Source: Escherichia phage AV109
Reading direction: 5' to 3' (one strand)
Length of the DNA stretch: 64,000 nt
Sequence record: OR352939.1
Part shown: piece by piece, positions 1 to 64,000 of the stretch
Position numbering within the stretch: the stretch's first letter is position 1
Layout of the letters: each line of letters opens with the position of its first letter
Made by a program: the position numbers and the translations under genes
Notes under the pieces: model-generated
Seen by the model: the letters and a program-made list of their open reading frames with translations, nothing else
Told to the model about the DNA's origin: nothing
Database searches by the model: none

Positions 1-2317
<2,317 letters not shown>

Positions 2318-54109: not shown

Positions 54110-54117
54110 TATAAATA
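54110..54117 (+). promoter_or_regulatory. T4-type late promoter TATAAATA for gene 34
   Basis: exact TATAAATA 31 nt upstream of the gene 34 ATG. Confidence 0.7.
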
Positions 54118-58031: not shown

Positions 58032-59159
58032 ATGGAAAAATTTATGGCTAAGTTTGGACAAGGATACGTCCAAACGCCATTTTTATCGGAAAGCAATTCA
58101 GTACGATTTAAATTAAGCATAGCGGGCTCTTGCCCGCTATCAACATCTCCTGCTTATATTAAGTTCCAGGATAATCCACTTGGGTCCCAGGTTTTTTCCG
58201 TTGGATTAAACGTTCGTGTAATAAATCCTACAACGGGTGCAGTAGTTGAATCTAAGACATATAATTTCTCTACTGAAAACGACGCCACGTCAAGTGCATT
58301 TGTTACTTTCATGGACACATATGCTTCAAATTTTATATTTGCTCTTGTTACTAACGCTAAAACAAACTTTCCGCCAGAAGTTCTTGCATGGTTTAATAAA
58401 GCCGGAAGTTCTGCTATTCCATTAGCTCAACAAGTTTTAAATATAGTGGACATTTCTTATTCGGCATTTTATATTTCTGGTAAGAATGCTATAGCACTAG
58501 AACATATTAAGTATAGTAATAAGAAAACTTCAACCGACTATAGTACACCACTTGATGTTGTGTACGACACGATCGATGATATTGGTGCTACCGGCTTCCC
58601 TAGTCGTACGTACGAATCGACAGACACATTTTTATCTGCTGTTGGAGGTACTAATAACGAAATTAAAAGGATGCCTACAACATCCCTTATTACACCTCTC
58701 GCTGGGTATAAATTGAAGCCTGGAGATTTCCTTTATATGAAATTCCAACTAATGGCAGATGCTGATTTGTTAGCACAAGGGACGACACGACTTTCTATTC
58801 GTTTCTTTAAATCTCCTTCTACTTCACCTATTTCATTTAAGGATACAAACTTTGATGGGGCTGCAGGTGAATGGAAGATATATGAAGACTACATAGAAAT
58901 TCCTGCCGGTGCTGACGGGTTCACGATTTATTGTTATCGTACGGCCCCAGTCGGGCAAGGCGGATTAAGAAACGTTATATTCACTGAAGTGTCATGTAAT
59001 GGAAGCGTTTCAAAACCTGCTGAGTTTGGTATAAATGGTATTCGTGTAAATTATGTTTCAGAATCTTTAAGTGCCCCAGACATAATGACATTACCTACTC
59101 AATCTTCAACTGATACCGGTAAGGTATTTGGACAAGAATTTAAAGAAGCATCAGAATAA
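58032..59159 (+). CDS. 35: long tail fibre hinge protein (T4 gp35-like)
   Basis: 375 aa directly after gene 34. Confidence 0.9.
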   Translation: MEKFMAKFGQGYVQTPFLSESNSVRFKLSIAGSCPLSTSPAYIKFQDNPLGSQVFSVGLNVRVINPTTGAVVESKTYNFSTENDATSSAFVTFMDTYASNFIFALVTNAKTNFPPEVLAWFNKAGSSAIPLAQQVLNIVDISYSAFYISGKNAIALEHIKYSNKKTSTDYSTPLDVVYDTIDDIGATGFPSRTYESTDTFLSAVGGTNNEIKRMPTTSLITPLAGYKLKPGDFLYMKFQLMADADLLAQGTTRLSIRFFKSPSTSPISFKDTNFDGAAGEWKIYEDYIEIPAGADGFTIYCYRTAPVGQGGLRNVIFTEVSCNGSVSKPAEFGINGIRVNYVSESLSAPDIMTLPTQSSTDTGKVFGQEFKEASE

Positions 59160-59189: not shown

Positions 59190-59197
59190 TATAAATA
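59190..59197 (+). promoter_or_regulatory. T4-type late promoter TATAAATA for gene 36
   Basis: exact TATAAATA 25 nt upstream of the gene 36 ATG. Confidence 0.7.
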
Positions 59198-59892: not shown

Positions 59893-62800
59893 ATGGCTAC
59901 ATTAAAACAGATACAATTTAAAAGAAGCAAAGTAGCAGGAGTTAATCCTACTGCAGCACAATTAGCCGAAGGCGAATTAGCGATAAACTTAAAAGATCGA
60001 ACTCTTTTTACTAAAGATGACCTCGGTAATATTATTAGCCTAGGCTTTGCTAAGGGTGGGGATATTAACGGTAATGTAACTCAAACTGGCGATTATTTAC
60101 AAAACGGCACGTATAATCTCAATGGAAATCAGTTTGTTTACGCAGGAAAATACATTGAATTTTTACCTAAAACCACTGGAAATGGCGCTTGGGCTAACCA
60201 ACATTCGAATAAAGCCCCTATCTTTACAGATTTAAGTTCAACTACTTCTGTTTCAGAATACCATCCACTGATTAAACAACGTTATAAAGATGGAACTTTT
60301 TCTGCTGGTACATTAGTAAACGAAGGTAGTTTTAAATTCCATTATATTGATGAAACCGGGACTTCAAAATACTGGACTTTTAATCGAAACGGTAATTTTC
60401 AAGTTGATTCCGGAAGTTTATTAGTATCTAATGGATATTTAGTTACTCAAAGTAATATTGAAACTAAAGCTGGTTCTTTAATTGGTCCTAAAGTTATTAC
60501 CAAAAATATCAATGTGAGTACTAAATCTTGGGACACTAATATTGATACTGCATATGATTTAGTTTCATTACCGACTTGGCACTATACTCCAACCGAAACA
60601 GATTTGGATACTAATGGTATAAACTACCTTCGTAAATTCCGCGGACATGTTTCTTCTGCTATTTTCCATGAAGTTGCTGATGCTCGTTCAGGTAAACCAC
60701 AGAATATTTCGTATTGGACGGGACGTAATGCTGAAGTTTATCAATGGTCTTATACCACAGACGGGCGTATGTCTGTTGCTAATTCGATAGGTATAGGTCT
60801 TGCTGATGTTGGTGACCAAGGACGTTATCCATTGGTTTCGTTTGGTAAAGGTATTGCAATTGGTGACAATGATACTGGTATTAAATGGGTTCGTGACGGC
60901 GTTATTGATTTGATTGCTAACGGTGTTTCGACCGGTACAATAAACAGTACTGGTGTTAATAGTACAAAGAAATTAACAGTTGGGTATAGCCGTGATTCTG
61001 GATCTACTTGGGATTATCCGAATACCAACCAGGCAATGTTCAGCGCTAGAACAGAAGTTGATGGTAATAATAACGGTGATGGTCAAACTCACATTGGTTA
61101 TAGTTCTAATGCTAAGATGTATCATTATTTCCGTGGCGCTGGCCGCATGGCCATCAGCATGGGTGAAGGTCTTATTGTCGAACCAGGAATTCTTGATATT
61201 AAAACCGGTTCAAATTCGTTAAATTTGCGTGCTGATGGTACCATCGCTTCTGTTCAAACGTTAAAACTTAATAATGGATTATATTTTAATGGTGATGGAA
61301 CTAATGCTTCTCTAATTTTTAAAGCAGCTTCAGGTATTGATGGTACTAAGCAAATTTTGTGGGAAGGCGGTACTCGTGCAGGTCAGAACAAAAGTTATGT
61401 GACCGTGAAAGCATGGGGTAACTCATTTAATGCTACTGGTGATAAAGCTCGAGAAACCGTATTTGAGGTTTCTGATGGCCAAGGTTATTATTTCTATTCT
61501 CAACGCGTAGCTCCGACCGGTTCTGAAACTACAGGCCCTGTTGTAACTCAGTTCAATGGACAGGTTAATGCTAGAGGAAGCTTAATAACCGACGGAAGTC
61601 TTAGAGTTAACGGATTAAGCACTCTAGTTGGCAACGTTACAATGAATAATGGATTGTTTGTTCAAGGCGGTTCTTCTATTACTGGACAAGTTAAAATTGG
61701 TGGAACAGCTGATGCATTAAGAATTTGGAATGCTGAATACGGTGCTATTTTCCGTCGTTCTGAAGATAAGCTTTATATTATTCCAACTCCGCAGAATGCT
61801 GGTGAATCAGGTGGTATTTCTAATTTACGTCCGTTCTATATTGCATTAAGTAATGGTAAAGTTTCTATGGATCATGATGTAGATATCGGCGGCGGCAGAT
61901 TTAAAGTAGAAGCTGCTGGAACTACGGCTGGTCAACGCATAACAGTAAATATGGCATCAGATGCTATTAGAATAAATGCTCCAACACAAGAGTCTTCTAA
62001 CTTCATTCAAGGACGTAAAGCAGATGTTCCGAAATGGTATTTAGGTATTGGCGACGGCGGCAACGTCGTTCGTATGCACAGTTACACATATTCACATGGT
62101 ATTGCATTAAACTCTGATTCTGTCGATATTACTAAACCTCTTAAAGTCGGAAATGCCCAACTAGGAACCGATGGCAATATCACGGGCGGTTCCGGTAACT
62201 TTGCTAACCTAAATACCGCATTAAACCGCAAGGTAAATTCAGGATTTGTAACATACGGTGCAACTGCCGGATGGTATAAATTCGCCACAGTAACGATGCC
62301 ACAATCTACTTCTACTGTTTCATTTACTGTAACTGGTGGTAAAGGATTTAATACTGGACTGTTTACACAGTGTGCTATAACAGAAATTGTTCTTCGTACT
62401 GGTAATGACCACCCAATAGGTTTAAACGCGGTGATGTATACCAGAACAGCTGCGGGTTTTACTGATATTGCTGTAGTTAATACCTCAGGAAATACATATG
62501 ATGTCTATGTTGAATCTGGCACTTATGCCAACCAATTAGCTTATACCTGGCATGCAGTTGATAATGCTACCGTAAAAGTTATTGGTGCTTTTGGTCCGAC
62601 TCAAGACCCGGTAGATTCTTTGCCGGTTGATTATGTTAAAGGCCAGGTAGCTAACATGCTTAACAACCTGGTAGACACAGGTAAAGTAAAACGTTATGAA
62701 GCCGATTCTGAAATAGCTATTAATAACCCAACCGGTATTCGTATCAGAAGTAACTATGATAAAACTGGTTCTGTGGCTACAATGTTACGAAATGATGGCG

Positions 62801-63666
62801 GTAGTTTTTATATTCTGTTTACAGATAAAAATGCCACCGATGGCGCAGCAACTGTTAATGGTGATTGGAATAGTAAACGTCCTTTCGCAATTAACTTAAC
62901 AACCGGCGAAGTGATAATGAATAATGGCATAGCTGTTCGCAGCGCTGCTTTATTCTATAATAGCATAAACGTCAAAGATAATGGTTCTATTAACTTTGAT
63001 AAGTCCGGTGCGAACCCAAGAAACATGCGTATATTCCACGCAGGTGATGGTACGCGAGGAAACCGCCTTGAAATTTCTGATGAAACTAACTATATTGCTT
63101 ACTTCCAAAAATTACCTGGTGGTCAAAACCAAGTTTCATTCAATAGTGCTACACTTTCTGGATTAACACAGTGCAATCAATTTGGTGTTAACACAACAAA
63201 CGCACTTGGTGGAAATAGTATAACGTTTGGTGATAATGACACCGGTATTAAGCAAAATGGCGATGGATTATTAGACATATATGCGAACAACGTGCAAGTG
63301 TTCCGTTTCCAAAACGGCGATTTGTACTCATATAAAAATATAAATGCTCCAAACGTTTATATTCGTTCTGATATTCGTTTAAAATCCAACTTTAAGCCTA
63401 TCGAAAATGCACTTGATAAAGTTGAAAAACTTAACGGTGTCATTTACGATAAAGCTGAATACATCGGTGGAGAGGCAATTGAAACTGAAGCGGGTATTGT
63501 GGCTCAAACGTTACAAGACGTTTTACCAGAAGCTGTCCGTGAAACAGAAGATAGCAAGGGTAATAAAATACTCACTGTTTCTTCTCAAGCCCAGATTGCT
63601 CTTCTGGTTGAAGCTGTGAAAACACTTTCTTCTCGTGTAAAAGAACTTGAATCTAAACTTATGTAA
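59893..63666 (+). CDS. 37: long tail fibre distal subunit (gp37) with C-terminal intramolecular-chaperone domain
   Basis: 1257 aa; C-terminal ~100 aa carry the S74-type signature SDIRLKSN..NGVIYDK..; followed by a gp38-like adhesin gene. Confidence 0.93.
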   Translation: MATLKQIQFKRSKVAGVNPTAAQLAEGELAINLKDRTLFTKDDLGNIISLGFAKGGDINGNVTQTGDYLQNGTYNLNGNQFVYAGKYIEFLPKTTGNGAWANQHSNKAPIFTDLSSTTSVSEYHPLIKQRYKDGTFSAGTLVNEGSFKFHYIDETGTSKYWTFNRNGNFQVDSGSLLVSNGYLVTQSNIETKAGSLIGPKVITKNINVSTKSWDTNIDTAYDLVSLPTWHYTPTETDLDTNGINYLRKFRGHVSSAIFHEVADARSGKPQNISYWTGRNAEVYQWSYTTDGRMSVANSIGIGLADVGDQGRYPLVSFGKGIAIGDNDTGIKWVRDGVIDLIANGVSTGTINSTGVNSTKKLTVGYSRDSGSTWDYPNTNQAMFSARTEVDGNNNGDGQTHIGYSSNAKMYHYFRGAGRMAISMGEGLIVEPGILDIKTGSNSLNLRADGTIASVQTLKLNNGLYFNGDGTNASLIFKAASGIDGTKQILWEGGTRAGQNKSYVTVKAWGNSFNATGDKARETVFEVSDGQGYYFYSQRVAPTGSETTGPVVTQFNGQVNARGSLITDGSLRVNGLSTLVGNVTMNNGLFVQGGSSITGQVKIGGTADALRIWNAEYGAIFRRSEDKLYIIPTPQNAGESGGISNLRPFYIALSNGKVSMDHDVDIGGGRFKVEAAGTTAGQRITVNMASDAIRINAPTQESSNFIQGRKADVPKWYLGIGDGGNVVRMHSYTYSHGIALNSDSVDITKPLKVGNAQLGTDGNITGGSGNFANLNTALNRKVNSGFVTYGATAGWYKFATVTMPQSTSTVSFTVTGGKGFNTGLFTQCAITEIVLRTGNDHPIGLNAVMYTRTAAGFTDIAVVNTSGNTYDVYVESGTYANQLAYTWHAVDNATVKVIGAFGPTQDPVDSLPVDYVKGQVANMLNNLVDTGKVKRYEADSEIAINNPTGIRIRSNYDKTGSVATMLRNDGGSFYILFTDKNATDGAATVNGDWNSKRPFAINLTTGEVIMNNGIAVRSAALFYNSINVKDNGSINFDKSGANPRNMRIFHAGDGTRGNRLEISDETNYIAYFQKLPGGQNQVSFNSATLSGLTQCNQFGVNTTNALGGNSITFGDNDTGIKQNGDGLLDIYANNVQVFRFQNGDLYSYKNINAPNVYIRSDIRLKSNFKPIENALDKVEKLNGVIYDKAEYIGGEAIETEAGIVAQTLQDVLPEAVRETEDSKGNKILTVSSQAQIALLVEAVKTLSSRVKELESKLM

Positions 63667-63667
63667 A

Positions 63668-63685
63668 AGAGGGCTTCGGCCCTCT
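63668..63685 (+). terminator. UUCG-loop stem-loop AGAGGGC-TTCG-GCCCTCT between genes 37 and 38
   Basis: perfect 7-bp stem right after the gene 37 stop, T5 run a few nt downstream. Confidence 0.45.
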
Positions 63686-63696
63686 AAGGATTTTTA

Positions 63697-64000
63697 ATGG
63701 CAATTGTAGGTGTTCCTGGCTGGATTGGCGAATCTGCCGTAAATGAAACTGGACAACGTTGGATGGATGCTGCAATGAAAGCAGTTCGTGTTTCAGTTCC
63801 TGGTTGGATGAGTTCAATGGCTGGGCAATCTAAAGAGATTCATTATAGCATTGGTGCTAGCAATTCTTACAATAAAGACACACTAATAAACTGGATAAAA
63901 GCCCAAGGAAGCACTCCTGTTGTTATTACTATTACAGGAAATATTGTTTCTCAATCTACCGGTGTTCCATGCTTAGATTTTCCTAGCTCATTAACTAATG
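63697..64000 (+). CDS. 38: receptor-recognising adhesin gp38 (T2-type), 5' partial
   Basis: N-terminus MAIVGVPGWIGESAVNETGQRWM matches recalled T2-type gp38; runs off the window end. Confidence 0.85.
   Translation, partial: MAIVGVPGWIGESAVNETGQRWMDAAMKAVRVSVPGWMSSMAGQSKEIHYSIGASNSYNKDTLINWIKAQGSTPVVITITGNIVSQSTGVPCLDFPSSLTN

Follow-up and report, generated by a model that had tools for sequence, protein, structure and literature searches.

At the 3' end of the window, by which is meant the whole stretch of 64,000 nucleotides that was analysed, an open reading frame starts just behind the gene for the distal subunit of the long tail fibre and runs off the end of the sequence. The locus raises the question of whether this frame encodes a receptor-binding adhesin of the T2 type or an assembly chaperone of the T4 type and, if it encodes an adhesin, which receptor is recognized. 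The ORF at 63697 is far beyond chance and is a genuine gene. The reading preferred here, to which a probability of about 96% is given, is that the ORF represents codons 1-101 of gene 38 (g38), encoding an adhesin of the T2/T6/S16 type that would cap the long tail fibre. Such gp38 adhesins are the main host-range determinant in most T-even phages, and they lend themselves in practice to predicting receptors, designing phage cocktails and engineering the host range. The gene, the class of adhesin, its modular design and the receptor of the phage have all been published already (PMC10844046).

By megablast the window matches the genome of Escherichia phage AV114 (OR352944.1; 168,522 bp; a Mosigvirus from pig waste in Denmark) at 100% and at identical coordinates, with 11001 of the 11001 bases between 53000 and 64000 identical to the same positions of the record. 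Since the window and the record are identical at equal coordinates, g38 can be read to its end. Read beyond base 64000 in OR352944.1, the complete gene occupies 63697-64488 and encodes 263 amino acids; the gp38 proteins of AV114 (WPK34987.1) and AV115 are identical, with no sequence difference from the protein described here.

The initiation codon is the ATG at 63697-63699, and the frame remains open through 63999, giving 101 codons up to the window end. The translation of this part, MAIVGVPGWIGESAVNETGQRWMDAAMKAVRVSVPGWMSSMAGQSKEIHYSIGASNSYNKDTLINWIKAQGSTPVVITITGNIVSQSTGVPCLDFPSSLTN, begins MAIVGVPGWIGESAVNETGQRWM..., in exact agreement with the start quoted in the original prediction. The placement of the gene behind gene 37 and its truncation by the window end are likewise borne out, the ATG lying 30 nt past the g37 stop codon (63664-63666) and 101 of the 263 codons falling inside. 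The window part of g38 encodes the attachment domain (residues 1-42), followed by a linker and the beginning of the central β-helix. Within the 30-nt spacer lie a hairpin and, 3' of it, the Shine-Dalgarno sequence AAGGA (Table 1). RNA folding of the hairpin gave a dG of -13.4 kcal/mol with a z of -2.07, and its stem is followed on the 3' side by AAGGA and then by TTTTT; in related phage records the site carries a 'terminator' annotation. The element is terminator-like by pattern and may act as a terminator, an attenuator or an RNA stabiliser. Assignment as an intrinsic terminator was considered and not adopted: the loose pattern fits, but the 5-nt Shine-Dalgarno sequence stands between the stem and the run of Ts, and the z is only -2.07.

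Two exact copies of the T4-type late promoter motif TATAAATA lie in the tail fibre region, one 5' of g36 and a second at 54110-54117, 31 nt 5' of the start of g34, and these positions fit the T4 layout of late tail-fibre transcription units. The number of copies in the 15-kb region scanned is at the level of chance, and the assignment as promoter rests on position. With that reading, the motif at 59190-59197 is likely the promoter of a g36-g37-g38 transcript. The motif scan of the 15-kb region gave no exact TATAAATA between g36 and g38, and a late promoter belonging to g38 itself was rejected, the only exact sites being those 5' of g34 and of g36.

Table 1. Features of the tail fibre locus and segments of gp38. 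Positions of genes, signals and DNA blocks are those of the window; segments are given in residues of the 263-residue AV114 gp38. Invariant, share of positions invariant in an alignment of seven gp38 sequences; T2, T6 and PaulHMueller (Bas45), amino acid identity to AV114 gp38.
Feature	Position	Strand	Basis or sequence	Invariant	T2	T6	PaulHMueller
5' part of g38, codons 1-101 of 263	63697..64000	+	ORF, translation, Pfam, PHROG, structure match				
Shine-Dalgarno AAGGA, 6 nt 5' of the g38 ATG	63686..63690	+	direct sequence reading				
Hairpin, 7-bp stem and UUCG tetraloop	63668..63685	+	AGAGGGC-TTCG-GCCCTCT; pattern scan, folding				
Candidate late promoter motif, T4-type, 24 nt 5' of g36 start	59190..59197	+	TATAAATA; motif scan				
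g37, long tail fibre distal subunit, 1257 aa; tip predicted to be docked by gp38	59893..63666	+	ORF, Pfam, PHROG, record				
gp37 C-terminal intramolecular-chaperone domain, gp37 residues 1159-1257	63367..63663	+	Peptidase_S74, SDxRxK motif				
Exchanged host-range cassette, distal third of g37 and g38	62226..64000 (to ~64494 in the record)	+	DNA comparison with AV110				
Block 90.8% identical to T2 DNA, last ~160 g37 codons and g38 codons 1-81	63181..63938	+	DNA comparison				
gp38 segment	1-46				96%	65%	
gp38 segment	47-115				62%	35%	
gp38 part in window	1-101				77%	46%	100/101 (99%)
gp38 segment	116-131		GRGGNGGSNSAGGAGG	50%			
gp38 segment	151-157		GGGGGGG	86%			
gp38 HVS2	158-172		AGARYHPFPQMDMIF	0%	7%	53% (8/15, PFPQM in common)	
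gp38 segment	173-184		GGGGGRPFGAAG (GGGGGRPFGxxG)	75%			
gp38 variable segment	185-212			7%	14%	39%	
gp38 segment	213-222		GNGGDLGAAG	50%			
gp38 variable segment	223-237			0%			
gp38 segment	238-263		GGAAGKAVTGNAPTWTKVGTIYGSRV	54%			
gp38 segment	158-237				27%	50%	45%

The family assignment is carried by profile and structure matches of both the window fragment and the whole protein. In the window fragment, residues 1-42 match Pfam Gp38_N (PF21721; E 1.2e-18, 67.2 bits) and residues 47-101 match positions 1-55 of the 218-position GP38 profile (PF05268; E 2.4e-18, 67.2 bits), the cut-off for both being 25 bits. Further matches of the fragment are to PHROG 2056, 'tail fiber protein; host specificity' (E 4e-45), and to chain D of PDB entry 6F45, the adhesin chain in the structure of the S16 tail-fibre tip (E 7.8e-18). 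These matches sustain the original assignment to the T2-type gp38 adhesin family with a gp37-attachment N-terminus. The 263-residue protein covers the GP38 profile completely (1-218 of 218; E 1.8e-69, 234.4 bits) as well as the Gp38_N profile (1-40 of 40); its residues 8-261 match 6F45_D (S16 gp38; E 3.7e-48), and it matches 9V85, the receptor-binding domain of PP01 gp38 (E 8.5e-32).

The other reading of the locus is that the g38 product is a T4-type assembly chaperone absent from the virion, in which case the tip of gp37 itself would bind the receptor. The position is that of T4 gene 38, and product names such as 'tail assembly protein' and 'distal long tail fiber assembly catalyst' are found in OR352944.1 and on several near-identical genes. 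However, the T4 gp38 chaperone (183 aa) has no similarity to AV114 gp38 by BLASTP (best E 13), the full-length matches are to the Pfam adhesin family GP38 and to the S16 adhesin structure, and gp37 ends in the predicted cleavable Peptidase_S74 domain of adhesin-capped fibres rather than in a T4-type needle tip. At the equivalent locus the sister phage AV110 does carry a true gp38 chaperone of the T4 type and has no similarity there to AV114, and the authors of the AV114 genome themselves class its gp38 as an adhesin (PMC10844046). The chaperone reading, which was dismissed on the BLASTP E of 13 and the domain content, is thus very improbable, and the adhesin reading is retained. In OR352944.1 the product name of g38 is 'tail assembly protein', which is how the unrelated T4 gp38 chaperone is labelled; chaperone-like labels also stand on the near-identical genes of AV115, of RB18 ('distal long tail fiber assembly catalyst') and of several OZ and OY records. 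Chaperone-type names on this adhesin gene are a propagated misannotation, and the misleading GenBank name could spread to further records.

The closest solved relative is gp38 of phage S16, whose complex with gp37 is available as PDB 6F45 (Dunne et al. 2018). In that protein, three tryptophans of the attachment domain dock into the gp37 trimer, and the glycine-rich motifs (GRMs) form a polyglycine-II sandwich with receptor-binding loops (PMC6851490). S16 gp38 is 49% identical to the AV114 protein over its full length (E 3.7e-48), and it conserves the docking tryptophans and all of the glycine-rich motifs, for example the run of 7-8 glycines and GGGGGRP. The gene order is also the same in S16, and its gp37 has an equivalent chaperone domain. 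The two adhesins differ in the hypervariable loops: identity is 32% in residues 158-237, and the hypervariable segments (HVSs) HVS2 and HVS4 are shorter in S16. The receptor of S16 is Salmonella OmpC, in contrast to E. coli Tsx for AV114.

In an alignment of AV114 gp38 with those of T2, T6, S16, RB18, TadeuszReichstein (Bas43) and PaulHMueller (Bas45), the tryptophans W9, W22 and W37 show no variation among the seven sequences, nor do the glycine motifs. All three gp37-docking tryptophans lie within the window. The conserved glycine blocks are GRGGNGG..GG, a run of seven glycines, GGGGGRPFG, GNGGD.G..G and GGAAG, and in the intervening segments 0-7% of positions are invariant. The original prediction had placed the hypervariable receptor-binding part beyond the window, and this is where it lies: no glycine-rich motif starts before residue 116, and the glycine content rises from 9.9% in residues 1-101 to 31% in residues 102-263. 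The glycine-rich and hypervariable layout, sought 3' of the window in OR352944.1, is present there and falls wholly past base 64000, with the predicted receptor-binding loops at record positions ~64040-64410. The alternating GRM/HVS design was described by Trojet et al. 2011 (PMC3157838), whose phage set does not contain RB18; for AV114 Gp38, five glycine-rich motifs and four hypervariable segments have been reported in a T2-like adhesin (PMC10844046). From the alignment with S16 we infer a three-domain fold for AV114 gp38, with an attachment domain, a β-helix and a polyglycine-II sandwich.

The neighbouring genes support the picture of an adhesin-capped fibre. The ORFs preceding g37 on the same strand encode 1291, 375 and 220 amino acids, gp36 among them matches Phage_T4_gp36, and the order g34-g35-g36-g37-g38-t-asiA is as in T2, T6 and S16; 3' of g38 in OR352944.1 are the holin gene t (Phage_holin_T, E 1.6e-91) and then asiA on the opposite strand. 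In gp35 (58032-59159), residues 58-129 match Pfam ILEI (PF15711; 29.2 bits against a cut-off of 27, E 1.4e-6), a family named for the interleukin-like EMT inducer / FAM3 fold, which is an unexpected name for a tail-fibre hinge protein.

gp37 itself matches Pfam gp37_trimer and Peptidase_S74 and PHROG 1699, 'long tail fiber protein distal subunit' (E 2.6e-296). The match to Peptidase_S74 (PF13884), known as the intramolecular chaperone of endosialidase-like fibres, covers residues 1159-1216 (E 2.5e-15), and the C-terminal chaperone domain opens with an S-D-x-R-x-K motif in which S, D, R and K are invariant in AV114, T2, T6 and S16. A second match, to the gp37 chain of 6F45 (E 1.6e-12), involves the last ~150 residues. 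In phages of the T2 and T6 types, gp38 caps the fibre once the C-terminus of gp37 has been cut off (PMC3157838), and for AV114 autoproteolysis is predicted to remove the last 99 residues ahead of capping. Given this cleavage and capping, the C-terminus would serve folding, and the mature tip would provide the platform for docking. The claim that the gp37 C-terminus helps to set receptor specificity thus finds no support in that form, as the last 99 residues are a Peptidase_S74 chaperone, cleaved according to the literature, and specificity would reside in the hypervariable loops of gp38.

The receptor of AV114 is Tsx, and the basis for this is the published phage-level phenotype. Plating on receptor-deletion mutants of E. 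coli ECOR4 showed that AV114 and AV115 recognize Tsx (Vitt et al., iScience 2024, PMC10844046); AV114 lost plating on the tsx deletion mutant in a panel that also included fadL and ompF deletions, and the phage was used as the 'Tsx' component of cocktails (PMC10844046). More generally, closely related Gp38 proteins share a receptor, and Tsx is the commonest predicted target (PMC12032242). The sequence comparison is weakly compatible with Tsx through a T6-like HVS2. T6 gp38 (BBF63669.1) is the classical Tsx binder and shares its receptor with AV114; it has PFPQM in HVS2 and a similar TISxPGxGxV frame in HVS3. It differs in a four-residue N-terminal extension, and the T6 gp37 tip differs from that of AV114, with 28% identity over the last 257 residues.

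A specificity like that of T2, for FadL/OmpF, would be suggested by the first half of the protein. T2 gp38 (AYD82839.1) is 96% identical in residues 1-46 and 85% in the C-terminal 26 residues, the gp37 C-termini are nearly identical, the DNA is 90.8% identical over the g37 C-terminus and g38 codons 1-81, and AV114 gp38 was grouped with T2 on overall similarity (PMC10844046). However, the hypervariable segments of the two proteins are unrelated, with identities of 7% (residues 158-172) and 14% (185-212) and of 27% over residues 158-237, and plating was lost on the tsx deletion in the panel that also included fadL and ompF deletions (PMC10844046). The N-terminus is moreover no predictor of the receptor, as shown by PaulHMueller: this phage depends on OmpA (PMC8594841), yet its gp38 differs from the 101 residues in the window by the single change K28R. 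Because 100 of 101 residues are identical to an OmpA-dependent adhesin, the window fragment carries no receptor information and cannot predict the receptor. A T2-like receptor specificity is consequently hardly credible, and Tsx stands as the receptor. The term 'T2-type' in the original prediction holds for the class of adhesin and for the N-terminal half (residues 1-46); it does not extend to the receptor, which is Tsx as in T6, with the T6-like PFPQM in HVS2.

The gp38 of PaulHMueller, nearly identical to the AV114 protein in the window part and only 45% identical in the HVS2-4 region, suggests that recombination separates the docking half from the specificity half, roughly at the first glycine-rich motif. 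A larger exchange is apparent from comparison with AV110, another Mosigvirus from this collection, whose gp37 tip and gp38 chaperone are both of the T4 type. AV114 and AV110 are 94.6% identical from g36 to 62225, have no similarity over 62226-64494, and are again 98.1% identical from 64495 through the holin gene. As similarity is lost only over 62226-64494, the distal third of g37 together with g38 constitutes an exchanged cassette, and g37 is chimeric, being Mosigvirus-like up to 62225 and unrelated to AV110 beyond. Within the cassette, the T2-like block at 63181-63938 is, judging by the DNA comparison, the putative co-inherited docking interface, and similarity to T6 DNA starts only at 63995, practically at the window edge. 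The closest relatives of the cassette are in Tequatrovirus phages such as RB18, TadeuszReichstein (Bas43), Kha5h and Shfl2, and over the whole of g38 these phages and Phaginator share 97-99% protein and 95-98% DNA identity; the gp38 of TadeuszReichstein, a BASEL phage, is 98.5% identical. Whereas the backbone of all these phages is that of Tequatrovirus, the backbone of AV114 is that of Mosigvirus, which indicates that the cassette has moved between the two genera. The locus is a clean case of exchange of a distal g37 and g38 cassette between Tequatrovirus and Mosigvirus.

The proposed mechanism is drawn from the literature and from the solved structure of the homologous S16 complex. The cassette, made up of g38 and the last third of g37, would have been acquired as one piece from T2-like Tequatrovirus lineages, and g38 is probably transcribed late, together with g37, from the promoter 5' of g36. 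The trimeric gp37 would fold with the aid of its own C-terminal intramolecular-chaperone domain (1159-1257), which would then be cut off at the conserved serine. One monomeric gp38 may then dock on the exposed gp37 tip by its N-terminal three-helix domain, in such a way that W9, W22 and W37 each enter one of three equivalent hydrophobic pockets of gp37. The central β-helix of gp38 would bear a polyglycine-II sandwich made of the glycine-rich motifs, and the hypervariable loops would project from this sandwich to bind the outer-membrane receptor, the nucleoside channel Tsx in the case of AV114. Homologues are the basis on which gp37 cleavage, a 3:1 stoichiometry and a polyglycine-II fold are presumed for AV114.

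Residues 158-237 of AV114 gp38 are nearly as close to the OmpA-dependent Bas45 (45%) as to T6 (50%). Here a docking module of the T2 type is joined to hypervariable segments that, as a set, are only about 50% identical to those of T6 and almost as near to an OmpA-binding set, which raises the tentative and rather unlikely idea that the AV114/RB18-type adhesin is a second, independently assembled way to bind Tsx. If so, this type of adhesin might contact other loops of Tsx than T6 does, and it might lie one or two substitutions away from a switch between OmpA and Tsx. This would be an incremental point inside a well-described family, as the existence of several Tsx-binding Gp38 clades and the proximity of Tsx and OmpA binders have been noted earlier (PMC12032242).

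The isolation hosts are given differently in the records and in the paper. GenBank lists ESBL056 for AV114 (OR352944.1) and ESBL091 for AV110 (OR352940.1), while the published table gives ESBL197 for AV114, ESBL56 for AV113, ESBL102 for AV110 and ESBL91 for AV109 (PMC10844046). The difference between the two lists looks like a shift by one row.
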